A stretch of 43,124 bases of DNA, taken from positions 1-43,124 of the forward strand of contig CBDURE010000013.1 in assembly GCA_965369605.1 (NCBI GenBank), written 5' to 3'. Position 1 is the first letter of the stretch, and the number at the start of each line of letters is the position of its first letter. The notes under the pieces were generated by a model. That model did no database searches. It worked only from the letters and a program-made list of their open reading frames with translations, and was not told where the DNA came from. Both the position numbers and the translations under genes were made by a program. Origin of the DNA: an uncultured bacterium. Its GTDB lineage: Bacteria > JAJVIF01 > JAGGVT01. Shown here one piece after another: positions 3,021 to 41,390 of the stretch.

Positions 3021-3116
3021 ATAATATTAAATTGACTAAATATAAGGAATGATGTTTCTTATAACCTATATTAGTTGAACCTATTTAACAATTCAGGTTA
3101 GGGTGGTTGTACTATC

Positions 3117-10742: not shown

Positions 10743-10918
10743 TTCTTTAAGCCAGATAAAAAGCGACAGTTCCCTTTTGGAGTATTCTCAGTTATTTCTG
10801 TTTTCACCGGACAGTAGTGATTTGCGAAATGAATCGATAAAATTGTATAATTTGCACGGTTGGAGGGACTTGCCTGAATAGGCGTTTTTTTGTTTTATTC
10901 ATAGGAGATTTACTGAAT

Positions 10919-16270: not shown

Positions 16271-16284
16271 GGCTTACTATATGA

Positions 16285-16384
16285 CCTCACCCCTGACCCC
16301 TCTCCTGCATCCGGCGAGGGGAGAAAGCATAGTGCTTTTCTGTTCCCCCTCTCCTGATGCAGGAGAGGGGGCTAGGGGGTGAGG
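16285..16384. repeat. MITE-like family 1 copy (paired TIRs cctcacccc...ggggtgagg)
   Basis: gacctcacccctgacccctctcctgcatccggcgagggg ... cccctctcctgatgcaggagagggggctagggggtgagg. Confidence 0.7.
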
Positions 16385-16442
16385 TTTGATTAAAGCAATA
16401 CGGTATTTAGGTCTGAACTTAAAATGCAGGAAGGACAAAAAG

Positions 16443-17939: not shown

Positions 17940-17985
17940 CCTCACCCCCGGCCCCTCTCCTGCATCAGGAGAGGGGAGAAAGAGG
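17940..17985. repeat. MITE-like family 1 solo end forming hairpin cccctctcctgcatcaggagagggg, immediately after tolC-like stop (terminator-like)
   Basis: cctcacccccggcccctctcctgcatcaggagaggggag. Confidence 0.6.
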
Positions 17986-19192: not shown

Positions 19193-19498
19193 ACGCAAAA
19201 CCTGGGAAATGGATTCCCAGGCTACAATCTGAATGATAAGGTCTGCGTGAAGTTTGAGGCGATGTTTATCCTTTGGAATTTCGTGGGTATGGTATTGTAT
19301 GGTCGCATCCTGGACGGGCAATATTAGCAGGGAACTCATTATTGGATTGTTTTGGTATATGCGATGGTGAACCCAGCGTTGTACTTCATTCACTTGATGA
19401 AGAGAAATGTCGGAATTGTAATTTGCTCTAGTGAAAAAAATATTTTGAGCTATATGAAATATAGTCGATTAATTTACTGGATATCAAGGAGTAAAAAA

Positions 19499-23120: not shown

Positions 23121-24239
23121 TTATTTTTTAAATACACATGAATTAAGTTTATCTATATATGTGTCACTGAAACTTGAGCCGGAGAAGAAGACAACGCCAT
23201 CAGCGTTTTCCTCTCTTGAGATGATTATCTGTTGCTCAAGTTCTTCAGGAGTATTCTTGTTATGTGATGTGCTGACCGCTATCCCGGGATAAACAAGGCA
23301 TTTGCCTTTAGCGACTTCAACAGCGCGATTAGTGTATTTTCTAAAAACGTCGTGGTTGCTTGTGTAAATCATCGGGCAGATGATGTCGATGATTCCCTCA
23401 TCGACCCAGCCCTTCCAGTCCTGTCCGATAAGGAGTTTCGCCGATTCGTGGTCGGGAAAAACCGCAGCCGATAGTGGGATGTCTTTTCCTGATTTTTTGA
23501 TTGAATCCTTGATTCCTCTAACAAGAGTGGTTACATGATTCGCGTTCCATCTAAGCCATTCGCACCATTCTGAACTTCCGCAGTTATGCCATCTCAGTTC
23601 GAGAGGAGTTACGCCGTATTCTTTTTTGAAAGCGTTAATAGTGGCGTCATCATAGCTGAATCCCTGGCTGGTCTGGAAACGGATGCCATCCAGCTGGATG
23701 CCGTCGATGTCATATTCATAAGCGGTTGCGATTTCAGCGATAATGAAATCGCGAACATCCTTGATTGCTAAATTCAGTTTTGGGCTTATTTCCTTTATGG
23801 TTTTCATCAACCATTCGGGATGCTCCTCGACTGTTTTTTCCCATCCGGGATAAATGTGGCTTGGGCAGATGCATGGATGGACTTTGATGTTTTTCGCGTG
23901 AGCTTCTTTGAGCAAGACATCAAGGAAATCCCAGTCCATCTTGTGCTGCCATTTCAGCACTGAAAAAGCGAAGAGGTCTGTGATTCCGATTTGCGCATAT
24001 TTAATGAAAAGCTCCTGCATCTCAATTTGCGCTTTTTCTTTCTCTTTTGAGAATTGTCGGGTTGATATCCACAACGCTCGCGCTTCGTTGTGTGATACGC
24101 TTTGATGCTGACGCATTGAAATGACAGAAGTTTTAATATTCTTAGAGCTTTCTTTAGCAACAAGCTGCGCGGGGTGAAGGCAAATCAGGAGTAGAATCCC
24201 GATTGCGAGTATTCCTGTAAATGCTTTGTACTGCATCAC
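23121..24239 (-). CDS. Secreted glycoside-hydrolase-like family 10 (GHL10/DUF187-type TIM-barrel) protein
   Basis: Signal peptide; motif YDIDGIQLDGIRF typical of GHL10; paralog of 29695-30762. Confidence 0.55.
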   Translation of the reverse strand: MMQYKAFTGILAIGILLLICLHPAQLVAKESSKNIKTSVISMRQHQSVSHNEARALWISTRQFSKEKEKAQIEMQELFIKYAQIGITDLFAFSVLKWQHKMDWDFLDVLLKEAHAKNIKVHPCICPSHIYPGWEKTVEEHPEWLMKTIKEISPKLNLAIKDVRDFIIAEIATAYEYDIDGIQLDGIRFQTSQGFSYDDATINAFKKEYGVTPLELRWHNCGSSEWCEWLRWNANHVTTLVRGIKDSIKKSGKDIPLSAAVFPDHESAKLLIGQDWKGWVDEGIIDIICPMIYTSNHDVFRKYTNRAVEVAKGKCLVYPGIAVSTSHNKNTPEELEQQIIISREENADGVVFFSGSSFSDTYIDKLNSCVFKK

Positions 24240-24312
24240 AAGTCCTTTTTATGGTGACCCGAAAGTCACGAATTTATTTGGATTAACGACTTTTTATCAA
24301 ATGCAAGACTTC

Positions 24313-24840
24313 TTAAATTAATTCGTAATTATACAGGTTTTCATCCGTTGCCACAACTTTACGCGCGAAATTGTCTTTCATGATGGTTTCGTAATCGTGG
24401 CCGACATCCGCTCGGCAGATTGACAGGAACACCAGATTTGTATCTGATACATTCACGACTCTGTGGCCGAATCCCGGTGGTGAATATACATGGCTGTTGG
24501 GAGTTAATTCGTGTGATTCGAATTTGTCGCTTCTGTCCTGAATGAGCGCAAGGCCTTTTCCCTCAAGCCCCATGATTGATTCGGCTGCATCAGGAGCGTT
24601 ATGGAAATGCCCTTTTGTGAAATAGAATTCGTTGCCTACTCTTCCGGGAAATAGAATAGTCGTGCCGATGATGAGATTATCGCTATCGGATGGCACGGGG
24701 AGGGCGTAGACCTCGTAGATGACGGGGTCGTTTTTTGAGAGGATTTCCTCGACCGCTTTTTGGTCGGCGAATAGCGATTTGATATCGCTTAGCTTGCGGA
24801 TTATTTTGTCGCCGTATGGTTTTGTTATGTCTGGTATCAT
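24313..24840 (-). CDS. Cupin-type glucose-6-phosphate isomerase (archaeal-type cPGI)
   Basis: TKGHFH...E metal-binding motif and PPGFGHRVVN motif characteristic of cupin PGI. Confidence 0.6.
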   Translation of the reverse strand: MIPDITKPYGDKIIRKLSDIKSLFADQKAVEEILSKNDPVIYEVYALPVPSDSDNLIIGTTILFPGRVGNEFYFTKGHFHNAPDAAESIMGLEGKGLALIQDRSDKFESHELTPNSHVYSPPGFGHRVVNVSDTNLVFLSICRADVGHDYETIMKDNFARKVVATDENLYNYELI

Positions 24841-24856
24841 GAGTTCACCTTAATTT

Positions 24857-24924
24857 CCCCGGCATGCCTGATTCACCTTATAGAAAATTGATGATTTTGT
24901 TCGGGACGGCATGACCGGGTTACG
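24857..24924. repeat. MITE-like family 2 copy (ccccggcatgcctgattcacct...ttcgggacggcatgaccgggttacg); followed by a separate 21-bp-arm hairpin at 24934-25008
   Basis: Same about 68-bp unit occurs at 29567-29633 (same strand) and 29479-29545 (inverted). Confidence 0.7.
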
Positions 24925-25067
24925 ATTTTTCTGCCCAGGAGCTTCGGCAACCTTGCCGTAAAGGCGCTGAAGCCCCCTACTTTCCGGCAAGGATGCCGAA
25001 GCTCCCGGTGAGTGTTGTTTTTTTACTTGCTAACCTGCTAACTTACTAACCTACTAACTTTCTTTTC

Positions 25068-27326
25068 CTATTTCAGTTCTTCGTAGCCCTTGATTATCTG
25101 GCATGCCGCTCTCATGAATGATGAGCCTTTTGCGAGGGCGTATTCGCTGGTTCGGTATGCGTATGTCCAGCCCCAGACATCGGTGTCGATTACCGGATAG
25201 TCGATAGGGACATCCGCGACTACCCATTGCTTGGTGTCCAGATCGCCGAGTTCAAGGAGTTCGCCTTTGCCTGAATAGATTCCAAGAGTAATTCCGCCGG
25301 GAACGATGCCATCCTCACAGCCTTTCATGAAACAGTATCGAGTGTGATAGCAATTCGGGCCTTGTCCGACATCAGCCATCATTGAGACATCGGCGGGATT
25401 GAATCCGAGAATCCATTGCAGCTGATATTCCGCAGCTTCGAGATATTCAAGATTTTTGCAGAGACGGCCTGCTGTTGCGAGTCCGAATGCGGTTTCGCCG
25501 AATCTTCCGTTGTTTGTGTCGGGGACTATGTTTCTAATCGTACCGTCATCCAGTTTTCCTCCGACTTGTCCGAATGGTGAGAGGTAGGCGTACTGCATCA
25601 TGTTGTCAGCCCATGCGGCAAAACAATCTGCGATTTCCGGTGTAAGTTCGCTTTTGGGATATCGATTGGCGAATTCATACAGTGCCGGCATGTGATATCC
25701 GGGACGCAAGGTTGTTTTCTCTTTTAACGAGTCTGTGTAGAAACTGCCATCATCGAGCTGAAGATCAATAATCGCTTTGACTCTGGCTTCAGCATCGGTG
25801 AAATATTTCCTTTCTCCTGTGATTTCGTATAATTCCAGATTGTTGAGCAGAAGTCCTGATTGTGTGTAATACAAATCCGGGTTGTCTGCAAGTATTTTAC
25901 TGGAGCGTTCGTAGGTATCCATCGCGACTTCGATACATTTATCAGAAAGATTTTTGTTGTATGGCATTAGCTGTCTTCCTATCCTTGCGAGCAGCGCGCC
26001 TGTTGTGCCGATTGCGGCTTCTTTAGTGATTCCGTAGTTGTATTTAACGCAGTCGGATTCATACACCACACGCGGCGCTTCATTTTCAGGGGTTGCAAGC
26101 CATGTGCAGACATCCTCGAAATCGGGTGTGAAACTGGCATGAAATCCGCCATCCCAGTATGATCTGCAGAAATAATCGGCTTCCCATGCGGCTTCGTTTA
26201 TAAATCGAGGCATACCGTCGAGTTGCTCATCGAGAATATCGCCGAATTCATCCTGGAAAGTTGTAAGGGCGTTTATTCCCATAGTTCCGCCCCAGATCCA
26301 TTTACCGTAATCGCCGGCATCGTGCCATCCGCCAGCGACATCGACACGGGTGCCGTCCAGTTTGACGATTGTATCGCCGGTATGGCAGGCTTTGTGGAAT
26401 CCGGGAACCTCAGTTCCGCATCGTTGATAGCGGAACCATCGCGCGGCTTTTTTTGTCAGTTCGAGATAATGGTCTTTTCTGATTGGGAACGTGTGTGAAT
26501 CGACAACCTCTTTGGTTTCATCGATAATCAGCCGGACTCTGTATAGGCCGGGTGTTTTGAAATCGGAGAAATCCGCGATGTAGTTATTGCCGCCCCAGAT
26601 ATGGAATCCGGTTTTCTTTAGTTTTCCTTTGTAAACAACAGGTTGTGGAAAGGGATGCTGCCTGTTGTGGAGTGAATCTATCAGTTCAAAATGCCCTGTC
26701 AGTTTTGAGTTGTTAGCCCATACTACAGCGGTTTTTACGCTTTTAACATCGTATCCGGCGTGGCAGATTATCGGCTTGAGTGTTTTCTGCGCGATTATCT
26801 GTCCGTCGGCAAGTTCGGACCAAGTGTCGATTTGTTGGCGGATTCGTCGAATCGTCCGCGCCTGTTTCATCTTGTCATCCATTGAGAGTTCGCTGCGGTT
26901 TCTTAGTTTTCGCGATGTTACATGAAATTCCAGTATTTTCGGATGACTGGCGACCTCAACATCCAAAGTCATGGTTTCCTGCGCGTATTCATAATCGACT
27001 TCCTTCTTCTTGCCGGTGGCTGTATCAATCAAAATCGGCATACCTTTAATGAGGAAATAAATCGGGTCGAATTTGAGTTGTGTTTTTATGGTTTTGGAGG
27101 AGGGAGCGTCCATTTGGAAGATGATTCTTAATTTCACGTCGTTTTGGTACGCTGCGACTTCCCATGATGTTCCCTTTATTCCAAGTGAAACGGGAATATC
27201 ATCGCGAAGTATCCAGCCTTCATCCTCGTCGAAAAAGTCACTGAATGTTTTGTCCTGTGCAAGTCCAGCGCTTGTCAGAAATGCGAATAATAATGCTGTA
27301 ATTGTTACAAACCTGAGAACTTTCAT
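25068..27326 (-). CDS. Secreted glycoside hydrolase family 9 endoglucanase with N-terminal Ig-like (CelD_N-type) domain
   Basis: Signal peptide; GH9 signature DVAGGWHDAGDYGKW; paralog of 30985-33267. Confidence 0.8.
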   Translation of the reverse strand: MKVLRFVTITALLFAFLTSAGLAQDKTFSDFFDEDEGWILRDDIPVSLGIKGTSWEVAAYQNDVKLRIIFQMDAPSSKTIKTQLKFDPIYFLIKGMPILIDTATGKKKEVDYEYAQETMTLDVEVASHPKILEFHVTSRKLRNRSELSMDDKMKQARTIRRIRQQIDTWSELADGQIIAQKTLKPIICHAGYDVKSVKTAVVWANNSKLTGHFELIDSLHNRQHPFPQPVVYKGKLKKTGFHIWGGNNYIADFSDFKTPGLYRVRLIIDETKEVVDSHTFPIRKDHYLELTKKAARWFRYQRCGTEVPGFHKACHTGDTIVKLDGTRVDVAGGWHDAGDYGKWIWGGTMGINALTTFQDEFGDILDEQLDGMPRFINEAAWEADYFCRSYWDGGFHASFTPDFEDVCTWLATPENEAPRVVYESDCVKYNYGITKEAAIGTTGALLARIGRQLMPYNKNLSDKCIEVAMDTYERSSKILADNPDLYYTQSGLLLNNLELYEITGERKYFTDAEARVKAIIDLQLDDGSFYTDSLKEKTTLRPGYHMPALYEFANRYPKSELTPEIADCFAAWADNMMQYAYLSPFGQVGGKLDDGTIRNIVPDTNNGRFGETAFGLATAGRLCKNLEYLEAAEYQLQWILGFNPADVSMMADVGQGPNCYHTRYCFMKGCEDGIVPGGITLGIYSGKGELLELGDLDTKQWVVADVPIDYPVIDTDVWGWTYAYRTSEYALAKGSSFMRAACQIIKGYEELK

Positions 27327-27529
27327 TTTGAATCTCCTGATGTTTTAGTCTTACAAATTAAATTTCGAAAGCAACATGCTAAAGGTCATCTGCTAAAGAT
27401 GATGTTCCGTCATTCCCGCGAAAGCGGGAATCCATTTTTCTTTTTATAGAAGAGTTGGCATCTCTCATTTTTAAATGGATTCCCGCTTTCGAGTGTGTCG
27501 GAAAAACCGCCAATCTAATATAAAACGTT

Positions 27530-27631
27530 GGGTGCCGCCCATACAACCGTCTCGGTTTTATGGGTGACACGTTGCTAAGTTACGCATTTCACCCACAAAT
27601 CACAAAAAGACGTGATGTGTGGGCGGCACCC
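27530..27631. other. Long multi-stem hairpin (12-bp outer stem gggtgccgccca/tgggcggcaccc) in the 5' region of the GH9 gene; candidate structured RNA/regulatory element
   Basis: Outer and inner (gggtga/tcaccc) stems read directly. Confidence 0.3.
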
Positions 27632-27740
27632 GGTGTTAGTTAAATATCGAATGAGTACCATGCTAAAGCATTGTACTGATTTCAGATAGCATTATGCAGA
27701 TATCGCATTGTTTAATCAATGTTAATTTGGGAATTTTCGT

Positions 27741-29694: not shown

Positions 29695-30762
29695 TTATTC
29701 TTTGAAAACGCTTTCTCTTAATGCTTCGAGAAATTCGTCGGTTATATGCGTCGCGAAGAAAAACACGATTCCGTCCGCGTTTTCCTCTCTCGATATGGCG
29801 ACCTGTTCTACAACTTCATCAGGTGTGCTATGGCTATGGCCTTTGATTTGAATTCCGGCGGTAACGAGACATTTGCCTTTGCCAACATCCATAGCGGCTT
29901 GAGTATATTTACGGAAAACGTTAGGATTTTTTGTGTACAGCATGGGGCAAATCATATCGACGATTCCCTCATCAACCCATGCCTGCCAATCCTGCCCAAT
30001 TAGAAGTTTTGCCGATTCGTGATCGGGAAAAACCGCGACAGACAGTGGAATATCCTTGCCGGACTTTTTGATGGTGGCTTTGACATCGCGGACATAACTT
30101 GTTACACGATCCGCGTTCCATCTGCACCACTCGCACCAGATAACACTTCCGCTGTTGAGCCATCTCAATTCCATCGGGTCTTTGCCGAATTCATCCTTGA
30201 ACTCCTTCAGAGTAACATCATCGTAACTGTATCCCTGGTGAGTCTGGTAGCGGATTCCATCGAGTTGGATGCCGTCAACGTCATACTCCAGCGCTTCCGT
30301 AATTTTACTCAGCGCGAGTTCCTTTGCACCTTCGGCAGGGAAATTCAGCCAGATATTATCCTCGTTCATGTTTTTCATAATCCATTCGGGATGCTCGTCC
30401 AATTGTTCCTGCCATTCCGGGAACATGTTATCGGGGCAACAGATTGCATGGACTTTCATGTTTCTTGAGTGAGCCTCATCAATCAAAACCTGCAGGAAAT
30501 CATAATCCTTGTTGTGCTGGCATTTCAGAATGGAGAAACAGTAGAGGTTATTGATTCCGATTGAATCGAGAGTATCGAGCATTTTCCTGATTCCTGCCAG
30601 CCCTTTGTCTGTGTCGCTGTCGAACGATGAGGAAGACATCCAGACACCGCGAATTTCATCGGCTTTCGGTTGAATTGATGCTTGTGCAGCGCCTGTTTGG
30701 TTGATGCATAAAACAAGCAGGAGGGCGAGCATCAGAGTTTTGGTGATTGTTGTGAATTTCAT
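29695..30762 (-). CDS. Secreted GHL10-like protein, paralog of 23121-24239
   Basis: Signal peptide; YDVDGIQLDGIRY motif; collinear similarity to the other copy. Confidence 0.55.
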   Translation of the reverse strand: MKFTTITKTLMLALLLVLCINQTGAAQASIQPKADEIRGVWMSSSSFDSDTDKGLAGIRKMLDTLDSIGINNLYCFSILKCQHNKDYDFLQVLIDEAHSRNMKVHAICCPDNMFPEWQEQLDEHPEWIMKNMNEDNIWLNFPAEGAKELALSKITEALEYDVDGIQLDGIRYQTHQGYSYDDVTLKEFKDEFGKDPMELRWLNSGSVIWCEWCRWNADRVTSYVRDVKATIKKSGKDIPLSVAVFPDHESAKLLIGQDWQAWVDEGIVDMICPMLYTKNPNVFRKYTQAAMDVGKGKCLVTAGIQIKGHSHSTPDEVVEQVAISREENADGIVFFFATHITDEFLEALRESVFKE

Positions 30763-30780
30763 GGTTTACTCTCCTTAAGA

Positions 30781-30980
30781 TGGATTCCGGGTCAAGCCCG
30801 GAATGACATTAAATGCAATGATGATATATTGTCATTCTGAACTTGATTCAGAATCCATCTTTTTCCGGTAATGGGATGGATTCCGGGTCAAGCCCGGAAT
30901 GACATAAAATGCAATCCCGGAATGCCATTGAACGCCTATAATGGCTATTGAATGTCTGGAATGACATTAAATGTAATCGC
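30781..30980. repeat. Cluster of REP-like hairpins: two tandem 37-bp units ggattccgggtcaagcccggaatgacat(t/a)aaatgcaat plus a gtcattctgaa...ttcagaatcc hairpin and partial third unit
   Basis: Units at 30783-30819 and 30878-30914 read directly; same gtcattcc/ggaatgac core as the other REP-like copies. Confidence 0.7.
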
Positions 30981-30984
30981 GGAT

Positions 30985-33267
30985 TTAGGGATTCAATCTC
31001 CGCATTGCTTTTTCAATCTGTGTTGTGCCCAGTACGAACCATGCGCTGTTTCGCGCCCAGTATTCGTTGCTGGAATAGACGTAAGTCCATCCGCGGACAT
31101 CGCAGTCGATTATCGGATAGTCCACAGGGACATCGGCAAGCACAATGTTTTTAGTGTCAGTATCGCCAAGATAGAATGGCTCGCCGGTTCCACATTTGAT
31201 TCCGTTTAGTATTCCGCCGGGTACGATGCCATCCACGCAGCTTTCCATGAAACAGTAGCGGTGATGGAAACATCCGGGACCGAATCCGACTCCAGCCATC
31301 ATTGAAATATCGGGTGCATTGAATCCGGTAATCCACTGGATTTGATGTTCCGCAGCTTCGAGATATTTGGGTTCATCGCACAGGATTGCAGCTGTTGCCA
31401 GTCCCCATGCGAATGCGCTGATACGTCTGTTGCCATGCTCGTATCTCATATTCAGCAGTTTGCCGTCTTTATTCACGCCGCCAACCAGTCCGAAATTATT
31501 CATGTTTGTGAAATTCATAGTGAGGTCAGCCCAGCGTTTGAAAGCCTGTTTTATTTTAACGTTCAGACTGCTGTCTGGATTCTGCTTGAAGAAATCATAC
31601 AGTGCGAGCATGTGGAATCGGCATTCGACATACTTATCCGATGTTCTTGCTTCATCGAAATAGAAACTGCCATCCTCAGCCTGAAGCGCGAGGAGATTTT
31701 CTGTAAATGCAAGAGCATCTTTTTGATATTTTTCATCGTTGGTTACTTGATAGAGGTCGATTGCCGACTTTAAAAGTCCGGCTTGAATCCAGAGGTATGA
31801 ATTTTGCTTTTTCTCGTATTCCGGTTTTGACAAATCGACGGCTTTGTCCAGCTCATAGACCTCTTTTGCAACTGAGATGCACCGGTCGCTGAGTTTTTTG
31901 TCATAGGGCATAACCTGCCGTCCGACTTTTGCAGCGGCTGCGCCCATGTGGCTGATTCCAGGTCCGCGTGAACCGCCATAATAGTTGTTTTCAAGCATTT
32001 CCGCTATGGTGACAATTCTGGGCGATTCTTTTTCAGGAGCGCCGAGCCATGTGCAGACATCCTCGAAATCCGCGGTGAATCCGGCGTGAAACTTGCCATC
32101 CCAATAGCCTTTGCACAGATATTCCGCTCCCCATGCGGCTTCGTCAAGGACGTCAGGTTTTGCGGTTCGGTTGCTGACGAACTCATCGCCGAGTTCATCC
32201 TGCAGATTTGCCAGCGCGATAATGCTGATTGTGGTAGGTCCAATCCATTTGCCGTAATCGCCGGCATCATGCCATCCGCCGGTAACATCGACTTTCGTGC
32301 CGTCAAGTTTGATAACCGTATCCTGCATGTGGCAGGCTTTGTGGAATCCCGGAATCTCCATGCCGCATCGCTGGTAGTAATACCAATCCGCCGCTTTCTT
32401 TGAAAGTTCGCGATACAGATTTTTCTTGATGGGGAAAACCTCTGAATCGACAACCTCTTTTGTTTCGTTCACTCGGAGCCTGAGATAATATAAACCGGGC
32501 GTTTTGAAATCGGAGAAATCAGCGATGTAGTTGTTTCCGCCCCAGATATGGAATCCGGTATATTTAAACTGTCCCGTATAGATAACCGGCTGCGGTGCGG
32601 GATGCTGCCTGTTACGGGTGGCATCCAGCAGCTCGAATGTGCCTGAAAGATTCTTTGAGTTTGCCCAGATTACCGCTGTTTTTGTGCCGTTGATATCATA
32701 ACCGGCGTGGCAGATGATCGGCTTGAGTGTTTTCTGTGCGATAATCTGTCCGCTTGCCAGTTTGGACCAGCTGTCGATTTGCGGACGGATTCGCCTTAGT
32801 GTCCTTGCTTGTTTGATTCTATCCTCGGTTGTGAGTTCGCCTCTATTCCCAAGCCTTCGCGATGTCGCTTTCATCTCAAGGATTTTGGGGTAGTCTGTTA
32901 CTTCCACATTGTAAATCATTTTGTCGTTTATGAATTTGTAACCAATCTCTTTCTCTTTTCCGGTTTTCGTGTCAATCACAACCGGCATGCCTCTCATGAG
33001 GAAATAGACAGGGTCAAATTCAAGAGTTGTTTTCACAGGTTTGGAGGGGGATTTATCGAGCTGGAAAATCACTCTTAGCATTACGTCATTTTGGTAGAGT
33101 GCCGCGCTCCATTTTATCCCGTCGATGTCGAGAGTAACCGGGATGTCATCGCGTAATGTCCATGCATCATCGAGGATATCGCCCGATTTTTCCTGCGTGG
33201 CGATTGTCGCTCCTGTCAGCATCAGTAAAACCAAAATACCAATCAGTATCATTCTCAGAGTTCTCAT
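30985..33267 (-). CDS. Secreted GH9 endoglucanase with N-terminal Ig-like domain, paralog of 25068-27326
   Basis: VTGGWHDAGDYGKW signature; signal peptide. Confidence 0.8.
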   Translation of the reverse strand: MRTLRMILIGILVLLMLTGATIATQEKSGDILDDAWTLRDDIPVTLDIDGIKWSAALYQNDVMLRVIFQLDKSPSKPVKTTLEFDPVYFLMRGMPVVIDTKTGKEKEIGYKFINDKMIYNVEVTDYPKILEMKATSRRLGNRGELTTEDRIKQARTLRRIRPQIDSWSKLASGQIIAQKTLKPIICHAGYDINGTKTAVIWANSKNLSGTFELLDATRNRQHPAPQPVIYTGQFKYTGFHIWGGNNYIADFSDFKTPGLYYLRLRVNETKEVVDSEVFPIKKNLYRELSKKAADWYYYQRCGMEIPGFHKACHMQDTVIKLDGTKVDVTGGWHDAGDYGKWIGPTTISIIALANLQDELGDEFVSNRTAKPDVLDEAAWGAEYLCKGYWDGKFHAGFTADFEDVCTWLGAPEKESPRIVTIAEMLENNYYGGSRGPGISHMGAAAAKVGRQVMPYDKKLSDRCISVAKEVYELDKAVDLSKPEYEKKQNSYLWIQAGLLKSAIDLYQVTNDEKYQKDALAFTENLLALQAEDGSFYFDEARTSDKYVECRFHMLALYDFFKQNPDSSLNVKIKQAFKRWADLTMNFTNMNNFGLVGGVNKDGKLLNMRYEHGNRRISAFAWGLATAAILCDEPKYLEAAEHQIQWITGFNAPDISMMAGVGFGPGCFHHRYCFMESCVDGIVPGGILNGIKCGTGEPFYLGDTDTKNIVLADVPVDYPIIDCDVRGWTYVYSSNEYWARNSAWFVLGTTQIEKAMRRLNP

Positions 33268-34435: not shown

Positions 34436-35377
34436 TCAGTCAAACAAGGAAAAGAGTTCGTTGATTTGTTCTTGATGATACTTACCGATAGAGCTGGTAT
34501 CAGAAGCATCCCCAAGATTGAAACAATTTTGGTTTTTTATTTGCTCCACATTCTGTTTAAGGCTCATCGACCCATGGGTATAGTTTTCTTCATCATACTT
34601 TAAAAGCAAGATACTGTGAGCCATCTGAGAAGAACGTGAATCGCCTTGATATTTAATCGAAGGTGCTTGAATTAACCGACAATTTCCTTTATTTTGAGGA
34701 TTAGTTATTTCTTTCCAAACTACTAAATGCCAATGTTTAACATCTTTTATATCAACATTATTTCTCAATTCAACTATTGATCTAAAGGATTCGCAAAAAT
34801 CAGACTTTGCCTGTTGGTTGCGGATAGCCATGTTAAATGTTAGTAGTAAAAGAATATAATGGCTTTTCTTGTTTGCTCCTGATAATAATTGCCTGATCTT
34901 CATAAGTAATGCTTCAATAACTTCTCGTTTTAGAATCTTTGTTATCTTCGACTCGTTTCTTAATGATTTTTCCTTATAATAAGTATCGCAAAAATCCAAG
35001 TTAATTAATGATAGATCAGGTGGTATATCAAGAGGTTTGTTGCTAAACATGCATTTTCCATTTTCGCAAATAAGTGATTCAACGGACCCAAAGAACAATT
35101 CATACTGATGATTGTGGAGATATAATTCAAACTTCAATTCCCACTCACCGTATTTTTTCATTTTTTCTTCTTCATTCAAATCTTCCAAGTTCTCATTATA
35201 TTCAATTGCGATGATCTTTTTCAAATTATCCTTCCAAGCTAAAACATCATGTATATCCAATCCTGGGAGTCCCAAATAAACCAGTCCATCATTGCCATTT
35301 GCCTGTTTAACCTTTTCAATATATGTTATATCTATGTGCTCTCTTATGAATTGCTTGTTTGGTGAATCAAAAGCCAT
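34436..35377 (-). CDS. Hypothetical protein (313 aa), partner translationally coupled to the GHKL ATPase; AT-rich island gene
   Basis: Start 1 nt after upstream stop; no recognisable motif; K/N/I-rich composition. Confidence 0.5.
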   Translation of the reverse strand: MAFDSPNKQFIREHIDITYIEKVKQANGNDGLVYLGLPGLDIHDVLAWKDNLKKIIAIEYNENLEDLNEEEKMKKYGEWELKFELYLHNHQYELFFGSVESLICENGKCMFSNKPLDIPPDLSLINLDFCDTYYKEKSLRNESKITKILKREVIEALLMKIRQLLSGANKKSHYILLLLTFNMAIRNQQAKSDFCESFRSIVELRNNVDIKDVKHWHLVVWKEITNPQNKGNCRLIQAPSIKYQGDSRSSQMAHSILLLKYDEENYTHGSMSLKQNVEQIKNQNCFNLGDASDTSSIGKYHQEQINELFSLFD

Positions 35378-35378
35378 A

Positions 35379-37046
35379 TTATTCTCCTCCTAATATAATA
35401 ATTTGAATGTCTGAATATACAGATTCCAGTTCAGATTGTGTTAACCTTTCCTCAAGAATGGAGTCAATCAATTTAAATACTTCTATTAGCTCGTCATTTT
35501 TGCCATGTGCACAATAATCATTTTGCAGCATAATCGACAAAATACTGTCAATGATTTCATCAGAGGTAATTGCTTCTTTTGCCTTTTCAATTTCTTTATC
35601 TGCTTGCTTCACAATATCATCAATCTTTTTACTTGATATTTCTTTATCCCGGGTAGAATATTTTTTTCGTTTTTGTATTCGATCTTTAATTCGTTTGGAA
35701 AGGACCTTTATTAATTCCTTAAGCTTCTTTTCTATATTCACATAATAAACACTGTGTGGCTGGGTTTCGATATCAAACCTACCATCAAGGGCATTTTTAT
35801 AATCTCTCCAGGATTTTAATTTATTTTTGGCATTTTCAATGCGATTCTTGTACATTAGCAAATCATCTGTTTTAGGATATTCAGAAATTTGTTCATGAAT
35901 ACTCGCCAGTTCATTTTTTGAATCCTCCAACCTTTCAGAAGATACATAATGATTATGGACTTTAGAAGAGTCCTCGCAGATGGTTCTAACGAGTTTGTCC
36001 AGGATTTTATTCAACTCAACTGATGTTGGACTGGGTTCAAAATCATCTCTTCCAGCTAGTGGTCGAAGGTCATCATGAGGTTCTATTAGAATCTCGCCTG
36101 TAGCTCTAATGTATTTAGAATGGTTAACAGAGAATTTTCTAAGGTAATCTCTATTACCAATAGAGAACCCCTTATATTTTACTAGCAGTCCTCTTATATT
36201 CATGTCTTTGAAAGGTAGTTTTGAATCATTAAAAACAGCCCATGCGTAAACATTCAATTTAACATTATTATCGGATTCGTAGTAAAAAAGTGGTCCAAGA
36301 CCTTGTTCGGTAAGGAATATTTTATTTGTGTATGGTCGATTTTGGGGAACATCATCAATGAAAATATCAACTTTACCGCTAAAATCTTTATTATATTCTG
36401 TGATACTAGATTCGAAAGAAAAAGTCGGATCAAATTTCAAAGGTACCGTGTTTTGTAGATATTCATTGAATCTATTTCTGTCTTTCATGTATTTATGCAT
36501 TTCAAGATCAAGGCCACTTAAGATTACCTTTGTTCCTTTAGATGTTGATACAGCGTCTGATGCATGATTCCCTATCTCAATTGAATCGCTGAGAAGATCA
36601 ACTAAACTAAGATGTTTTGTTGATTCTGTTAGTCGTGATTGTTGAATTTCATCAAGTTTAGTCTTCATATTTTCAAAATCGATTTTTAAGAATAAGGATC
36701 CACCTTTTTTCTTTTGTGTTAGCAAAATAAGTTGATCACAGTATGGAAATGCGCTAAAAATCCCGATTCCTCGAAAACCAACATTCACTCGTGGATCTTT
36801 TGTGGAAATCCCAAGTTTCTTTGCATCAGATAATTGCTTCATATTCATACCATCACCATCATCAACAATCACGATTGAATGAGGGTTTATTTTTATATCA
36901 ATTTTCGATGGATTGGAATCTATGCTATTCTGGATATATTCCCTGATTGAATCAAGAGGATGAACATATATTCCTTTTGTAAGAATCGATATAAGTTCAC
37001 TACCGATATCATCCTTTGTGAAGTTGGGAACTTTGATAGATTTCAT
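35379..37046 (-). CDS. GHKL-superfamily (MORC/HATPase_c_3-like) ATPase with long C-terminal coiled-coil region
   Basis: Bergerat-fold motifs in order: N-box EYIQNSID (ExxxNxxD), G1 DDGDGM (DxGxG), G2 GFRGIG (GxxGxG); start set at MKSIKVP (ggag RBS) rather than ORF-track Met at 37175, which would leave only 23 bp to the divergent gene. Confidence 0.7.
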   Translation of the reverse strand: MKSIKVPNFTKDDIGSELISILTKGIYVHPLDSIREYIQNSIDSNPSKIDIKINPHSIVIVDDGDGMNMKQLSDAKKLGISTKDPRVNVGFRGIGIFSAFPYCDQLILLTQKKKGGSLFLKIDFENMKTKLDEIQQSRLTESTKHLSLVDLLSDSIEIGNHASDAVSTSKGTKVILSGLDLEMHKYMKDRNRFNEYLQNTVPLKFDPTFSFESSITEYNKDFSGKVDIFIDDVPQNRPYTNKIFLTEQGLGPLFYYESDNNVKLNVYAWAVFNDSKLPFKDMNIRGLLVKYKGFSIGNRDYLRKFSVNHSKYIRATGEILIEPHDDLRPLAGRDDFEPSPTSVELNKILDKLVRTICEDSSKVHNHYVSSERLEDSKNELASIHEQISEYPKTDDLLMYKNRIENAKNKLKSWRDYKNALDGRFDIETQPHSVYYVNIEKKLKELIKVLSKRIKDRIQKRKKYSTRDKEISSKKIDDIVKQADKEIEKAKEAITSDEIIDSILSIMLQNDYCAHGKNDELIEVFKLIDSILEERLTQSELESVYSDIQIIILGGE

Positions 37047-37198
37047 TTTAAGACTCCGAAGTATTTCAGAGATATTTAAGAATTCTAGAACTGAAATTAT
37101 ACCAAAGCAAGAGCTCAGCTCATAGGAGAAATGTGTTTTCACCATGTCGTTCATGCTTGACAATATCGCGGTCATAATGTTAGCTTTCTGTTATTAAA

Positions 37199-38566
37199 AT
37201 GAAAAAGATACTTTTGATAGAACCAGATTATCGTTCAAAGTTTCCCCCTTTGGGATTGATGAAGATCTCTACCTTTCATAAGAATCGCGGTGATTGCGTT
37301 GCTTTTGCTCGTGGAAGAGAAGAAAATCTTAAAGCAGTAACATGGGACAGAATCTATATTTCTTCGCTATTTACGTGGGAATTGCCAAGAACATTAAAGA
37401 CAATTAAATATTACAAAGATTCGGTTACGTGCAGCAATGACTTAATAGTTGGTGGAACTGCAGTTACATTGAAACCAGATTTCATTTTGGATAATATCAA
37501 TTGCACAGTTGTGAAGGGACAGTTAGACAAACCAGGACTACTCGGTGCGAAAACACCAGCGATTGCCAACTTTGTGCCAGATTACTCGATTCTTGAAGAT
37601 GTTGATTTTGAATATAAACCTAAAGACGCGTATTTTTGCCGTATTACAAAGGGATGCGTTAGGAAATGCAAGTTTTGTGCGGTTCCGAAATTAGAACCAA
37701 CTTTTGGTTTTAATGGTGATGTGTTGAGTCAGGTTCGCAAAATTAAAAAGTTACATGGTGAAAAGCATGATTTGGTCATCCTGGATAATAATATTCTTGG
37801 GATAGATCGATTTGAAGAGATTATTACAAAGATAAAAAAATGTGGCTTTGAGAAAGATAGTAAACTGAATGGAAAGAAACGTGGTGTCGATTTCAATCAA
37901 GGCATTGATGCCAGGCTCATTAACTCGAAAAACGCAAAACTACTTGCATCAGTGTGCTTGTCGCCAGTTCGTTTGGCTTTCGATTTTGATGGTATGGAAA
38001 GAAAATATCGCAAGGCGGTACACACATTAGAAAATGTAGGATTTAGAACGTTCACGAATTATTGCCTTTTCAACTTTGAGGATTCACCGAGAAGTTTATA
38101 TCATAGACTAAGAGTAAACATTGAGCTGAATCGAGAATTAGGAATCAGGATAACTGGCTTTCCGATGCGTTACATACCTATAGATAGCATTAATCGTCGA
38201 CATATCGGACCAGAATGGCGATGGAAGTATTTAAGAGGAATTCAGTGCATTTTGCTCGCCACAAGAGGTCTTGTCAGCCCTAATCCTGCGTTTTTTGAAG
38301 CATCATTCGGTGAATCATATGAAAAATTCATTGAAATTATTTCAATGCCTGATAGATACATAATCTATAGAAATAAAAATAAAGAGGACGCAAAAGCTTG
38401 GCGTAGGAGATTCATTCACCTTAGCAGAGGAAGTAAAGAAGAATTATTTGAAATCCTTAAGAAGTTGAACAGCAGTCGAACTAGGAAAAAGAACATCATG
38501 GAGCACAAAAAGTTTCTAGGGCTTTTAGAGCACTACTATCCAAATGGTGAAATACATTATGAATAA
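37199..38566 (+). CDS. B12-binding-domain radical SAM protein (class B rSAM-like)
   Basis: N-terminal KILLIEPDY...PPLGL motif typical of cobalamin-binding domain of class B rSAM; CxxxCxxC cluster CVRKCKFC; divergent from GHKL operon; AT-rich. Confidence 0.65.
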   Translation: MKKILLIEPDYRSKFPPLGLMKISTFHKNRGDCVAFARGREENLKAVTWDRIYISSLFTWELPRTLKTIKYYKDSVTCSNDLIVGGTAVTLKPDFILDNINCTVVKGQLDKPGLLGAKTPAIANFVPDYSILEDVDFEYKPKDAYFCRITKGCVRKCKFCAVPKLEPTFGFNGDVLSQVRKIKKLHGEKHDLVILDNNILGIDRFEEIITKIKKCGFEKDSKLNGKKRGVDFNQGIDARLINSKNAKLLASVCLSPVRLAFDFDGMERKYRKAVHTLENVGFRTFTNYCLFNFEDSPRSLYHRLRVNIELNRELGIRITGFPMRYIPIDSINRRHIGPEWRWKYLRGIQCILLATRGLVSPNPAFFEASFGESYEKFIEIISMPDRYIIYRNKNKEDAKAWRRRFIHLSRGSKEELFEILKKLNSSRTRKKNIMEHKKFLGLLEHYYPNGEIHYE

Positions 38567-38605
38567 TAATCCAGCTTAAAAGGTGAATATCCTTCTAACC
38601 TCTCT

Positions 38606-38700
38606 AATCCTCGTCCTCTTCCTTATCCGATTTGCGGCGGTCTATTATTTTTTGGGCCGCTTCGTGGCCTGCTTCGTCGTAGTGGCTGAACTCGATTTCG
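38606..38700. repeat. 95-bp direct repeat A: degenerate duplicate (5 mismatches) of the last about 95 nt, including the stop, of the EF-G-like gene; partner B at 39310-39405
   Basis: taatcctcGtcctcttccttatccgatttgcggcggtcT... vs taatcctcAtcctcttccttatccgatttgcggcggtcG... Confidence 0.8.
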
Positions 38701-38801
38701 AATGTGGTAAACGCCCCCCTCTTATTAAGGTTTAAGAAAAATTGAAGAGAATTTTTCATTTCTTGCAGCGATTTTCGCTTCGGTGCCGTCTATTAGGCAC
38801 G

Positions 38802-39275
38802 ATGGATAAGTATTCAGAAGGCAGTCGAGCGGAAAATCACAGCAAACGAAGGAAACTGCGGCGGGAATCCACTGTTGCTGAAAAGAATCTGTGGGAAAGG
38901 CTTCGGAACAGGAATCTTAGCTACAAATTCCGCCGCCAGCATAATGTTGGCTATTACATCGCTGATTTCTATTGTGCAAGATTGATGCTTGCTGTTGAAA
39001 TTGATGGCGGCATACATTTGCAAAGGGATCATCTTGAGTATGATAAAGAGCGGGACAGGATTTTTCGATCAAAAGGTGTGAGGGTGTTAAGGTTTACCAA
39101 TGATAGAGTTATGAATGAAATGGATAAAGTATGTGATGAGATTGTTGCTGTGTGTGATGAAATGGGAAGACCTCACCCCCCGGCCCCCTCTCCACCTGTT
39201 TTGTCCACGGACAAGGTTTACACATTGTCAGGGACATGGTTTACACATGTCAAGGGTAATAATGGTACCCCCTAG
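38802..39275 (+). CDS. DUF559 (Vsr-like / restriction-endonuclease-fold) protein; C-terminal 30 aa are read-through into the MITE
   Basis: Conserved DUF559 pattern ...AEKNLWERLRNR...KFRRQHNVGYYIADFYC...LAVEIDGGIH...VLRFTN; tail PHPPAPSPP encoded by cctcaccccccggccccctctcc. Confidence 0.6.
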   Translation: MDKYSEGSRAENHSKRRKLRRESTVAEKNLWERLRNRNLSYKFRRQHNVGYYIADFYCARLMLAVEIDGGIHLQRDHLEYDKERDRIFRSKGVRVLRFTNDRVMNEMDKVCDEIVAVCDEMGRPHPPAPSPPVLSTDKVYTLSGTWFTHVKGNNGTP

Positions 39276-39305
39276 GGGGTTGCAGGAGAGGGGTCGGGGG
39301 TGAGG
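39171..39305. repeat. MITE-like family 1 copy with paired TIRs
   Basis: cctcaccccccggccccctctccacc ... ggagaggggtcgggggtgagg. Confidence 0.7.
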
Positions 39306-39308
39306 TTA

Positions 39309-41390
39309 TTAATCCTCATCCTCTTCCTTATCCGATTTGCGGCGGTCGATTATTTTTTGGGCAGCTTCGTGGCCTACTTCGTCGTAGTGGCTGAATTCGA
39401 TTTCGTAGGAGCCTCGACCGGATGTTATTGAATTGAGGTCAGCGACGTAATTCTGCAGTTCTGCCAGAGGAATAGTTGCCATTATTACCTGCAGGGAGCC
39501 TCGCGCCTCCATGTTCTGGATTCGAGCGCGTTTTGAGTTCAAATCGCCCATGATATCGCCCATGTATTCCTCGGGGATGAAGATTGTGGCGTTATAGACA
39601 GGCTCGAGCAGGATGGGGGTGGCGTCCACCCATCCCTTTTTGAAACTGATACGCGCCGCCTGTTTGAAAGCGATTTCCTTTGAGTCAACTTTGTGGTATG
39701 AGCCGAAGAAAAGGGTCGCTTTGAAATCGGTTGCGGGATAGCCCGCGAGTGGGCCATCCGACATGTATTCTCTCAAACCCTTTTCAACAGCGGGGATGAA
39801 AGAGTTCGGGATGACTCCGCCGACTATGGCATCGACGAATTCAAATCCGGCTCCGCGTTCCATAGGCTCGTAGCGGATGTGGACATCGCCGTACTGCCCC
39901 GCGCCTCCGGTCTGTTTCTTGTGCTTACCCTGCGCCTCAGACTTGCCCTTGATTGTTTCGCGATATGCGATTTCAGGAGTTTTGGTGTCAACGCCGACGT
40001 TGAATCGACGTTTAAGCTTTTGCAGCGCAACTGCCAGATGGTTCGGACCCATTCCGTTGAGAATCAATTCATGAGTTTCCTGGTTCCTGTCCCAGATAAG
40101 AGTGGGATCCTCTTCGGTCAGTTTGGTTAGCCCGGTTGTGATTCGCTGCTCGTCATCGCGGCTTTTTGGAGTAAGCGCGAGGGAGTAAATCGGCTGTGGG
40201 AAGTCGATAGGCGCATACACAACAGGCTGATCGGCTTTGGTTATAGTGTCGCTGGTGTTTGTTACAGTGAGTTTTACGAGAACTCCGATATCTCCGGCGA
40301 TAATCTCTTTTATAGTCTCATGCTCCTTGCCTTTCAGTTTAAGAAGCGCGCCGATTTTTTCCTTTTCGCCTCGTGATGTGTTGTACAGGTTGCTGTCGGC
40401 TGAGATTGTACCCGAGAAAACACGCACGATGTTGATTCGTCCGGCGAACGGGTCGATAGTGGTTTTCACCACAAACGCGCTGACAGGCGCGTTGACATCG
40501 GGTTCGCGATTCTCTTTTTCCTCTGTTCCCGGTTTCAAACCCTCTTTCGGGGGGAATTCAGCCGGTGATGGGAACATGTTGACAAGAGCGTCAGTAAGCG
40601 GCATGACTCCGTTGTTCAATGTTCCACTGCCGGCGAAAACAGGAATAATCTCACCCGATTTAATCGATTTTTTCAGTACCCTGAAGAAATCCTCAGGCGG
40701 AATGTCCTCGCCCTCGAGATATTTCTCCATTAGTTCCTCATCGTTTTCAGCGATTTTTTCAATCGTTTCAATGCGAAGAGTCTCGGCAATGTCGCTCATG
40801 TCAGCAGGAATATCCTCTTCGCGGATTTTTTTGCCGTCACCATCGGGATAAATCGCTTTCTGCTTGAGCAAATCAACGACACCCTTGAACCCTTCCTCTT
40901 TGCCAATAGGGATAGTCAGGGGCATTACGCCTTTGAAAATCTCTTTGATCTGCTGGAAAATGCGGTCGAAATCGGCGCGTTCCCTGTCCATTTTGCTGAT
41001 GAAAATAGCGCGCGCGTGGTTGCCGCTTATCGCGAATGAATTGACTTTCTCGGTCATAACCTCGACACCGTCAACAGCGCTGATAACAATCACCGCGATA
41101 TCCGCTGCCCTGAATGAGGCGCGAGCGTCGTTGATAAAATCGGGGAATCCCGGGGTGTCTATCAGGTTAATTACTGAGCCATTGTGTTTAACGGGATAAA
41201 ACGATGACGAAACCGAAATTTTACGCTCGATTTCATCCTCGAGGAAGTCCATTACAGTGTTGCCTTCATCTGTTTTGCCCAGGCGATTTAGTTCGCCTGT
41301 GTTGTATATCATTGCTTCGGCGATGGAGGTTTTTCCGCATCCACCGTGTCCCGCGAGTACAACATTCCTGAAATCATTCACGCTTGCCAT
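39309..41390 (-). CDS. Elongation factor G-family GTPase paralog (EF-G-like), non-canonical G1 region
   Basis: Five-domain EF-G-like length; G1 AGHGGCGKTS, DTPG (G3), NKMD-like SKMD (G4); start placed at Met preceded by aaggaga RBS (ORF track starts 23 codons upstream). Confidence 0.7.
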   Translation of the reverse strand: MASVNDFRNVVLAGHGGCGKTSIAEAMIYNTGELNRLGKTDEGNTVMDFLEDEIERKISVSSSFYPVKHNGSVINLIDTPGFPDFINDARASFRAADIAVIVISAVDGVEVMTEKVNSFAISGNHARAIFISKMDRERADFDRIFQQIKEIFKGVMPLTIPIGKEEGFKGVVDLLKQKAIYPDGDGKKIREEDIPADMSDIAETLRIETIEKIAENDEELMEKYLEGEDIPPEDFFRVLKKSIKSGEIIPVFAGSGTLNNGVMPLTDALVNMFPSPAEFPPKEGLKPGTEEKENREPDVNAPVSAFVVKTTIDPFAGRINIVRVFSGTISADSNLYNTSRGEKEKIGALLKLKGKEHETIKEIIAGDIGVLVKLTVTNTSDTITKADQPVVYAPIDFPQPIYSLALTPKSRDDEQRITTGLTKLTEEDPTLIWDRNQETHELILNGMGPNHLAVALQKLKRRFNVGVDTKTPEIAYRETIKGKSEAQGKHKKQTGGAGQYGDVHIRYEPMERGAGFEFVDAIVGGVIPNSFIPAVEKGLREYMSDGPLAGYPATDFKATLFFGSYHKVDSKEIAFKQAARISFKKGWVDATPILLEPVYNATIFIPEEYMGDIMGDLNSKRARIQNMEARGSLQVIMATIPLAELQNYVADLNSITSGRGSYEIEFSHYDEVGHEAAQKIIDRRKSDKEEDED

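Follow-up and report, generated by a model that had tools for sequence, protein, structure and literature searches.

A doubled EF-G gene end beside a DUF559 cassette and a BoxC-type MITE: a candidate scar of recombination between two diverged alleles

Introduction

Known since the 1990s, BoxC/PIT/'triplex-motif' repeats are spread over hundreds of genomes of bacteria and are linked to genome instability. To our knowledge, no enzyme that mobilises or recognises them is known and no protein has been tied to BoxC. A repeat of this type, in the form of a hairpin MITE (a miniature transposable element with inverted repeats), lies between a small gene for a nuclease of the DUF559 family and the 3' end of a gene for elongation factor G (EF-G) in the stretch of DNA analysed here, contig CBDURE010000013.1 of an uncultured bacterium (assembly GCA_965369605.1; 43,124 nucleotides (nt), the whole of which is called the window). 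A second, dead copy of the same EF-G end, the relic, lies on the other side of the DUF559 gene. The repeat motif is that of the Escherichia coli BoxC element, alias PIT or TMECO (Holder et al., 2015; PMC4666352); motifs of the BoxC type are documented sites of rearrangement in E. coli, its authors state that mobility genes were never found beside the motif, and neither DUF559 nor the E. coli DUF559 gene ycjD is mentioned in that study (PMC4666352). DUF559 itself is among the gene families enriched for flanking inverted repeats in a published screen (PMC9881135). The direct repeat of the EF-G end is read here, with a probability of about 0.5, as a recombination scar joining two diverged alleles of a hot spot downstream of EF-G.

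Homology-facilitated illegitimate recombination is familiar from transformation in Acinetobacter and pneumococcus. Integrative islands typically leave direct repeats of the 3' end of a gene, by which the gene is restored. The present locus, as read here, resembles the scars of the former process in that foreign DNA stands by a core gene with one homologous and one non-homologous junction and in that alleles from diverged lineages form a mosaic; however, such scars usually involve replacement or deletion, whereas here a 102-nt piece of a core gene is doubled. On its own, the repeated gene end is a variation on recombination scars already known. With 3'-end genomic islands and their att repeats the locus shares a direct repeat of the gene end, an intact gene and diverged copies, but no integrase was found among the scanned ORFs of the window, the repeats are 609 nt apart and the real island lies outside them. 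The DUF559 protein has a Vsr-type PD-(D/E)XK catalytic fold and may in this resemble the EDxHD homing endonucleases, a family ('fractured genes') to which selfish nuclease genes that stand alone at broken or doubled gene ends also belong (PMC3239194, PMC2677866). EDxHD enzymes require an N-terminal NUMOD/helix-turn-helix (HTH) recognition region (PMC3239194); unlike I-Bth0305I, the window protein (122 aa) is a catalytic domain only, with about 20 basic residues before the domain and no NUMOD/HTH, and its gene, unlike EDxHD homing genes, stands free between relic and MITE, no intron, intein or split intein having been found there. The RAYT/REPIN systems (PMC3337134) are similar in that a single-copy gene is tightly flanked by dispersed hairpin doublets or MITEs, and different in that the enzyme is a Y1 (HUH) transposase and not a PD-(D/E)XK nuclease; the repeat here is of the BoxC type and the mobility of the window unit is putative.

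Results

The EF-G gene (39309-41390, minus strand) is an intact stand-alone gene of 693 aa as judged by open reading frame (ORF), Pfam and NCBIfam analysis, with the five EF-G domains GTP_EFTU, EF-G_D2, EFG_III, EFG_IV and EFG_C, a score of 880 bits against NCBIfam NF009381 (cut-off 583), a length equal to that of its relatives P0001, P0242 and P0243, and the end ...SYEIEFSHYDEVGHEAAQKIIDRRKSDKEEDED-TAA. It lies outside a ribosomal-protein operon and has a LexA-like gene upstream. A repeat search of the region identified one family of direct repeats, the pair of EF-G ends, in which 38605-38700 and 39310-39405 are 95% identical over 96 nt with five mismatches and no gaps (blastn E=2e-39); no third copy of the EF-G end was found in the 43-kb window. 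The gene-attached copy (39310-39405, minus strand) comprises the last 31 codons of EF-G, the stop codon TAA of which lies at 39309-39311, and the other copy keeps the frame and stops with TAG at 38604-38606. An earlier note, made from the DNA letters, had given the repeat as 95 nt from 38606, which was off by one (96 nt from 38605); the repeat it had observed is real, the five substitutions without an indel that it expected of the alignment were obtained, and its description of the copy as the last 31 codons plus stop, in frame, with TAG against TAA, was right throughout.

Alignment with relatives carrying the T-F allele described below showed that the EF-G-derived part of the relic reaches 38706, two codons beyond the repeat. 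The dead relic (38604-38706, minus strand, including 38605-38700) is therefore T-F followed by 31 codons and TAG, 102 nt in all, and matches contig L180 of the nearest relative at 94% over 102 nt in a blastn comparison. The DNA between the two copies comprises about 25 nt of uncertain source, a leader of 70 nt, the DUF559 ORF and the 137-nt hairpin MITE. Homology to EF-G ends at 38706 and firm homology to the DUF559 cassette begins at 38731; within these homology limits, 38707-38730 (GTAAACGCCCCCCTCTTATTAAGG) is either filler at the junction or an upstream G/C-run module that the cassette retains in truncated form, and its C-run stands at the position of the upstream modules in other DUF559 loci. 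The conserved non-coding leader (38731-38801, plus strand) was delimited as part of a blastn block common to contig L016, and the DUF559 ORF (38802-39275, plus strand), with its domain within 38802-39167, was assigned by Pfam PF04480. The MITE (39171-39307) was identified by the pattern of its terminal inverted repeats (TIRs), CCTCACCCCCCGGCCCCCTCTCC and GGAGAGGGGTCGGGGGTGAGG, by alignment of its family and by its fold, and is of the BoxC/PIT/'triplex-motif' type. On the outer side of the relic, alignment with contig L001 defined a native MITE-free 3' flank (38567-38603, minus strand), whose homology to the L001 flank covers its first 12 nt or more, and beyond it lies a low-GC island of three genes (34436-38566).

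By their sequences, the relic and the live end appear to be the ends of two alleles about as distant as separate species-level lineages. The closest EF-G relatives were taken from the protein database together with their contigs; exact-sequence searches with the EF-G, DUF559 and radical-SAM proteins of the window gave no match, its own entries being reached through members of their clusters. In the 31 shared codons the two copies differ by four synonymous and one non-synonymous substitutions, which over 16 synonymous and 77 non-synonymous sites gives a pS of 0.25 and a pN of 0.013 (P=0.004 under neutral decay). The codons before the repeat are T-F in the relic, as in P0242, P0243, L177 and L003, and S-Y in the live gene, as in L001; in all, relic and live end show 11 differences in 105 nt and are about 10% apart, with 9 and 9 differences to L180 for the two copies and 10 and 14 to L001. 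The surroundings differ as well: L001 3871-3979 aligns with window 38700-38592 at 90% identity, continuing 12 nt past the stop codon into the MITE-free flank, whereas the stop codon of the live gene is followed after 2 nt by the same TIR, at the same offset, as in the six contigs L179-L184 of the P0242 lineage. Since the copies show a synonymous excess, T-F versus S-Y codons and unlike 3' flanks, one of the two gene ends was probably imported. The earlier note had likewise supposed that a gene end was carried in from elsewhere, and this part of its inference stands; the site-specific integration that it attached to it is not supported, no integrase or recombinase having been found in the scanned ORFs of the window. 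A short target duplication made by a transposase, which the note had discounted, is indeed at odds with a repeat of 96-102 nt with about 5-10% divergence and substitutions of the coding type, and the DNA flanked by the repeat has a TIR pair on one side only, unlike that in a transposase target-site duplication. Simple tandem duplication was considered and rejected, given the unlike flanks (MITE versus L001-like) and a distance between the copies no smaller than that to other lineages.

Along the whole EF-G gene (39309-41390), informative positions match P0242/3 in 27 cases and P0001 in 10, interleaved along its length, a fine-scale mosaic in the protein that suggests repeated recombination among these lineages.

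The arrangement recurs in an independent European Nucleotide Archive (ENA) assembly, ERZ26661670, in which a contig of 656 nt (L015) matches window 38589-39244 at 99.2% identity. It covers the flank on the side of the radical-SAM gene, the relic, the DUF559 gene and the start of the MITE, and reproduces the junction between relic and DUF559, so that the left half of the structure is no artefact of assembly, and misassembly is unlikely at the left junction. The junction between MITE and EF-G is backed by the window contig alone. All five differences between L015 and the window lie at the left end of the MITE, where sequencing errors are possible given the 1.7x coverage of L015. Two of them, at L015 568-579 versus window 39156-39167, change ATGGGA to AAGTGA and create a stop codon just before the MITE, with which the DUF559 protein of L015 ends at 121 aa as against 157 aa in the window.

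No DUF559 gene near EF-G and no second EF-G end was found in any of the 15 related loci (nine lineages, 72-95% amino-acid identity), and a metagenome scan with the EF-G C-terminus gave no close relative, its best matches being 72-77% identical and none of them with DUF559. The earlier note had looked for an empty site in which EF-G is followed directly by the radical-SAM island; such a site was not found, as none of the 15 related loci shares that island, and because the relatives with a single EF-G end (15) are all without it there is no strict empty site. What follows EF-G on its 3' side differs from lineage to lineage: the C-terminal part of a type-ISP-like restriction-modification gene in L001 (4591-5364), a nuclease of the Mrr family in L177 (1714-2093), SmpB in L013 and proline dehydrogenase in L179-L184, while for one further relative (contig ends L003-L012) 17 contigs all break about 230 nt past EF-G. 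The site downstream of EF-G is therefore regarded as a hot spot in which the DNA varies. In the window it is occupied by the island adjoining the relic (34436-38566), which was delimited by composition and Pfam, measures 4.1 kb and has a G+C content of 0.32-0.38 versus about 0.49 for the region. According to Pfam its genes encode one protein of unknown kind, an HATPase_c_3 protein (MutL/sacsin-like ATPase) and a B12-binding/radical-SAM protein; no PADLOC, NCBIfam or Pfam model names a system in 34436-38566, which has the look of an acquired defence-type island. A search for att sites at the far border of the island found neither a degenerate copy of the EF-G end nor direct repeats.

Comparison with the nearest relative (L179/L180, GCA_021157815.1, 89% nucleotide identity) revealed an inversion of at least 28.5 kb, in which the block from LexA to EF-G is inverted with respect to the block from proline dehydrogenase to the sodium:solute symporter. 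L180 5620-6802 corresponds to window 10656-11821 on the plus strand, and L180 2049-5560 to window 42746-39284 on the minus strand. In L180 a single MITE bridges EF-G and proline dehydrogenase; in the window each of the two separated junctions has one, at 39171-39307 and at 10591-10742, the latter being a second MITE of the same family which lies upstream of the proline dehydrogenase gene and which the L180 alignment places at the other inversion breakpoint. Because the bridging MITE of L180 is thus represented by the two junction MITEs of the window, the repeat locus sits exactly on an inversion breakpoint. Derivation of the window from L180 by a single MITE-by-MITE crossover was rejected, as the orientation of the MITE interior relative to EF-G fitted no scheme that was written out. 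Two ORFs without a Pfam match, 11859-12869 and 19352-20536 (336 and 394 aa), are insertions relative to the otherwise collinear L180 block.

No integrase, transposase, other recombinase or excisionase was identified by Pfam among the scanned window ORFs of at least 100 aa, eight of which had no match of any kind; the scan did not include five ORFs of a transporter operon (13048-17927), which correspond by position to the MFP, ABC, FtsX and OEP efflux genes of L179-L184.

The DUF559 gene is the only one of its kind in the window. Its product matches Pfam PF04480 with 112 bits (cut-off 20.6; 1.6e-32) over 105 of the 109 profile positions, the only other Pfam match being MTES_1575; in the database entry P0241 the protein starts at 38766 and has 170 aa. 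Invariant columns of the family were defined from an alignment of 40 DUF559 sequences, with the core D-F-Y-C ... E-x-D-G-x-x-H ... R-F-x-N, and all 15 are kept (L19, R20, E27, W31, F43, R45, D55, F56, E66, D68, G69, H72, D81, R97 and N100). The protein matches the solved DUF559 structure (PDB ID: 3hrl) at 3e-16; a weaker match is that to the catalytic domain of I-Bth0305I (PDB ID: 3r3p; phmmer E=1e-3 over 92 residues), and the homing-endonuclease model of PADLOC is matched at 1.4e-5. These matches bear out the earlier assignment to the Vsr-fold nucleases and suggest a distant kinship with a homing endonuclease.

A relative of this protein, 82% identical, is encoded in contig L016 in an unrelated context next to a CofH-like gene. 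L016 1360-1823 corresponds to window 38731-39193 over 464 nt at 87% identity, from the leader through the gene into the TIR, and no similarity was found between the target at the window site and that at the L016 site. As L016 carries the unit in a different context, the unit of leader, gene and TIR has been relocated within this group of organisms. The leader (38731-38801 versus L016 1360-1431) is about 90% identical, as conserved as the coding region despite the unlike flanks. Its sequence may hold a promoter or a regulatory RNA; a promoter and terminator scan of the region performed no better than on shuffled sequence, and Rfam gave no family at the gathering score, with two microRNA matches in the region at chance level. 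A discrete left end of the cassette was sought and none is claimed, the alignment of window and L016 being ambiguous upstream of 38731.

At its other end the DUF559 ORF runs into the MITE, in which its last 36 codons fall (from about 39168). The MITE had been supposed to have fused onto DUF559 as an additional event, which is contradicted by L016, where the junction between gene and TIR (GAAATGGGAAG followed directly by ACCTCACCCC) is the same as in the window and a further MITE lies 5' of the gene. Because of this shared junction and of the BoxC-type hairpins found at the 3' ends of DUF559 genes from several phyla and of E. coli ycjD, the MITE is regarded as a constant companion of DUF559 and not as a later insertion. 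The PHPPAPSPP tail that it adds is incidental, as in the sister contig L015 a TGA stop codon precedes the MITE. Conversely, since L179-L184 have the MITE at the EF-G stop codon without DUF559, what lies between the repeats was not inserted as a single element.

The TIR pattern (21-23 nt) has seven matches in the window versus none expected, at four sites in 43 kb: 39171-39307, 10591-10742, 16285-16384 and 17940-17985. Three of these lie wholly between large ORFs; the fourth, between the DUF559 domain and EF-G, is read into only by the incidental tail of the DUF559 ORF. The computed hairpin of the MITE at 39171-39307 has a folding energy of -72 kcal/mol as RNA and -34 kcal/mol as DNA, with z about -4.5 versus shuffled sequence; the copy at 16285 (m16285) has a local hairpin form. 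Comparison with Table 1 of PMC4666352 showed that the block pattern of BoxC/PIT/TMECO, CCCTCTCC - loop - GGAGAGGG - 2-3 nt - GGGTGAGG, is present in the window TIR, which reads GGAGAGGGG-TC-GGGGGTGAGG with CCCCCTCTCC in the opposite arm.

A survey of DUF559 loci was carried out by scanning a genome collection, to which the window's own genome does not belong, with an alignment of eight sequences as the query, yielding 80 loci (L017-L096) from many phyla at 39-53% identity, 75 of which had usable flanks. In 41 of the 75 the gene is bracketed by direct or inverted repeats, 20 nt long or more and no farther than 400 nt away on either side, with lengths of up to 116 nt and identities of up to 100%. 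The frequency of C4 or G4 runs is highest 60-160 nt ahead of the DUF559 domain and 20-80 nt behind it, reaching 52-62% of loci per 20-nt bin compared with about 5% inside the gene, and the window TIR words CCCTCTCC and CCTCACCC are 20-30-fold enriched beside DUF559 genes. The bipartite motif CACC(2-5)-N(1-4)-C(3-6)-[TG]C occurs within 250 nt of the DUF559 gene in 43 of the 80 loci, concentrated within about 100 nt of both gene ends, at a density near the gene 41-fold that of distant flanks and 11-fold that of other non-ORF DNA of the loci. Several DUF559 homologues end in ...PxPxxGEGxG tails read from G/C-rich hairpin modules. A 75-nt repeat in L027 with differences of seeming period 3 was set aside as a non-coding repeat between LeuRS and another gene. 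Coupling of DUF559 and BoxC across phyla is not described in the literature searched.

The window cassette is a distant counterpart of a known, unexplained arrangement of ycjD and BoxC in E. coli. In strain K-12 (L185, NC_000913.3 1351204-1351760) ycjD ends inside a BoxC-like half, its product terminating in ...RSPSP, and a complete BoxC element (TMECO no. 9) lies 168 nt downstream; by an arithmetic estimate from 23 elements in 4.6 Mb, the chance of such proximity is about 0.004. The locus also holds a 39-nt direct repeat, 90% identical, of the 3' end of ycjD itself, with a spacing of 106 nt around the BoxC half. The block of about 93 nt that creates this repeat is absent from strain 2017-02-2CC (L187), for which reason the repeat looks local. 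Of 5,426 complete E. coli genomes, about 3,350 (about 62%) have the ycjD region, and in one examined strain without ycjD the sapF-fabI site holds eef efflux genes, an alternative between ycjD and eef across phylogroups that is reported in a preprint (10.1101/2024.08.01.606150). Strain O157:H7 was tried as a clean empty site for ycjD and rejected, as its sapF-fabI site holds a different island (eef). The two loci are alike in that a small DUF559 ORF runs into a BoxC half (the window protein ending ...GRPHPPAPSPP), in that BoxC DNA is flanked by direct, diverged copies of the 3' end of a gene, in strain variability of the locus and in the motif architecture of the TIR, GGAGAGGG-N-GGGTGAGG. They differ in what is doubled: E. 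coli duplicates the end of ycjD itself (39 nt), the window that of the neighbouring EF-G gene (96-102 nt) in two alleles.

Elsewhere in the window, 27405-27633 belongs to a second short dispersed repeat family common to these lineages, pieces of it recurring at unrelated positions of L001, L179 and L180 with identities of 100% (41-45 nt) or 82-95%. A gene pair encoding GHL10 and a GH9 cellulase is duplicated (23121-27326 versus 29695-33267, 71-79% nucleotide identity, 5.9-6.6-kb spacing), and PKD-domain proteins are repeated with a 2.8-kb period at 312-5873; both are diverged tandem sets of paralogues. Intergenic repeats of 68 nt (93%) and 41 nt (98%) occur at 24857/29566 and 30779/30875, respectively.

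Discussion

The anatomy of the locus, the separate ancestry of its two gene ends, the absence of the arrangement from relatives and its context of rearrangement are observations. Because of the synonymous excess, the T-F/S-Y and flank differences and the divergence of about 10%, two alleles of the EF-G downstream hot spot are proposed to have been joined non-homologously at 38706/38707. Version 1 would have consisted of EF-G ending ...SYEIEF...TAA, 2 nt, the BoxC-type hairpin MITE and the DUF559 cassette, and version 2 of EF-G ending ...TFEIEF...TAG, the MITE-free native flank and the low-GC three-gene island. In the version 2 EF-G the joint would have been made at position -102, to which the DUF559 cassette was attached by its 5' edge; 609 nt downstream of the live gene end, a dead one of 102 nt would therefore be left. 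As the most economical route we infer a single event of horizontal transfer and recombination with one homologous and one illegitimate junction, that is, homology-facilitated illegitimate recombination, in which either the island with a 102-nt donor piece of EF-G arrived beside a resident cassette or the cassette with a donor EF-G end displaced the resident end. The initiating break may have come from the fold-back or putatively triplex-forming MITE or from the adjacent DUF559 nuclease.

Several points weigh against this interpretation and keep its probability at about 0.5. Duplication, as opposed to deletion, is the less usual outcome of illegitimate joints. The outgroups polarise the five differing sites inconsistently, L001 agreeing with the relic at three of them and L177 with the live end at three and in the stop codon, and the amino-acid mosaic of EF-G with respect to P0001 and P0242/3 shows no clean block. 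The statistics of copy divergence derive from about 100 nt. The MITE interior is flipped relative to EF-G when compared with L180, which a lone inversion does not explain, and more than one rearrangement event may lie behind the locus. Finally, no cassette-free sequence of the same species was found in the collections searched, because of which donor and recipient are not distinguishable and the crossover in EF-G is not mappable.

The alternative that survives best, although it is considered unlikely, is that the DUF559 cassette mobilised itself, as the earlier note had proposed. It would have done so either by homing, in which the nuclease would cut a cassette-free EF-G 3' region and an allele with the cassette would serve to repair the break, or as a 705-bp circle (EF-G end, MITE and DUF559) entering by a single crossover in the 102-nt homology; by either route the element would bring its own gene end and displace the old one. 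The structure is what a single crossover of the Campbell type would leave, with the live gene followed by element DNA and the relic by native flank, and the separate ancestry of the two EF-G ends is accommodated. The 87%-identical cassette, with leader and TIR junction, at the unrelated L016 site bears out the part of the proposal that concerns a recurring cassette, and the full set of invariant residues, the matches to I-Bth0305I (1e-3) and to the PADLOC homing-endonuclease model (1.4e-5), the tight bracketing of 41 of 75 loci by repeats and the alternation of ycjD with eefRABCD at sapF-fabI in E. coli are all in keeping with it. However, the note had asked for other DUF559 cassettes flanked by duplicated gene ends, and none of the 75 loci has a duplicated end of a neighbouring gene. 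L179-L184 have the MITE at the EF-G stop codon without DUF559, the protein lacks a domain for DNA recognition like the NUMOD/HTH of the EDxHD enzymes, the window and L016 sites share no target similarity, and both circle formation and cleavage are putative. As none of the 15 relatives has DUF559, the inversion is bounded by MITEs, no recombinase was found in the scanned ORFs of the window and duplicated ends occur in 0 of 75 loci, integration of the cassette by its own means is unproven.

Improbable, by comparison, is a duplication in situ, in which the hairpin MITE would have given rise to replication slippage, template switching or unequal exchange and the copies would have diverged later. 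The 39-nt repeat of E. coli K-12 ycjD is a local precedent, and BoxC motifs are linked to local instability. Against this, a 4:1 excess of synonymous changes is unexpected in a decaying copy (P=0.004), the copies are as distant from each other as from other lineages, and a copy made locally would share flank or allele, whereas the relic has T-F and an L001-like MITE-free flank and the live gene S-Y and the MITE.

The locus might also be the remnant of an integrase-bearing island at the EF-G 3' end (attL/attR), reduced to DUF559 and MITE, which is judged slightly less probable still. A repeat of a gene 3' end suits that island type, as does a position in a hot spot for islands, and the divergence between the copies is what the arms of attP and attB would show. 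Nevertheless, no integrase, excisionase or relic of either was found in the scanned ORFs of the window, the repeats lie only 609 nt apart, the low-GC island is outside the repeats with no third copy at its far border, and the MITE next to the stop codon is ancestral, being common to relatives without the island.

Although the window belongs to a metagenomic contig, with proteins on record solely from NCBI/ENA assemblies, MITEs are multi-copy and the right junction between MITE and EF-G has no independent support, a misjoining of strains or repeats during assembly is very improbable, given that the separate assembly L015 spans the locus from the radical-SAM flank to the start of the MITE at 99.2%, that chimeric joins fall in shared repeats whereas the inner boundary of the relic is a unique joint, that a repeat diverged by 5% is not the product of a collapse and that the TIR 2 nt past the EF-G stop codon recurs in six other contigs.

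Read as a scar between two alleles, the locus would show a core translation gene staying intact while the DNA adjoining it is swapped between lineages, with a dated relic of the other allele remaining, and it is a caution that long gene-end repeats are not always the att sites of integrases. As a tentative further suggestion, which is thought possible but not probable, DUF559 nucleases may be the missing partner proteins of the BoxC/PIT/'triplex-motif' repeats, forming with them a selfish module that spans phyla and breaks DNA at its repeats, a PD-(D/E)XK counterpart of RAYT/REPIN in which the small nuclease gene is bracketed by hairpin repeats of its own; the duplication of the EF-G end and the MITE-bounded inversion would then be its footprints. 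If this were true, a widespread family of repeats would be explained and a very common domain of unknown function would be given a role.

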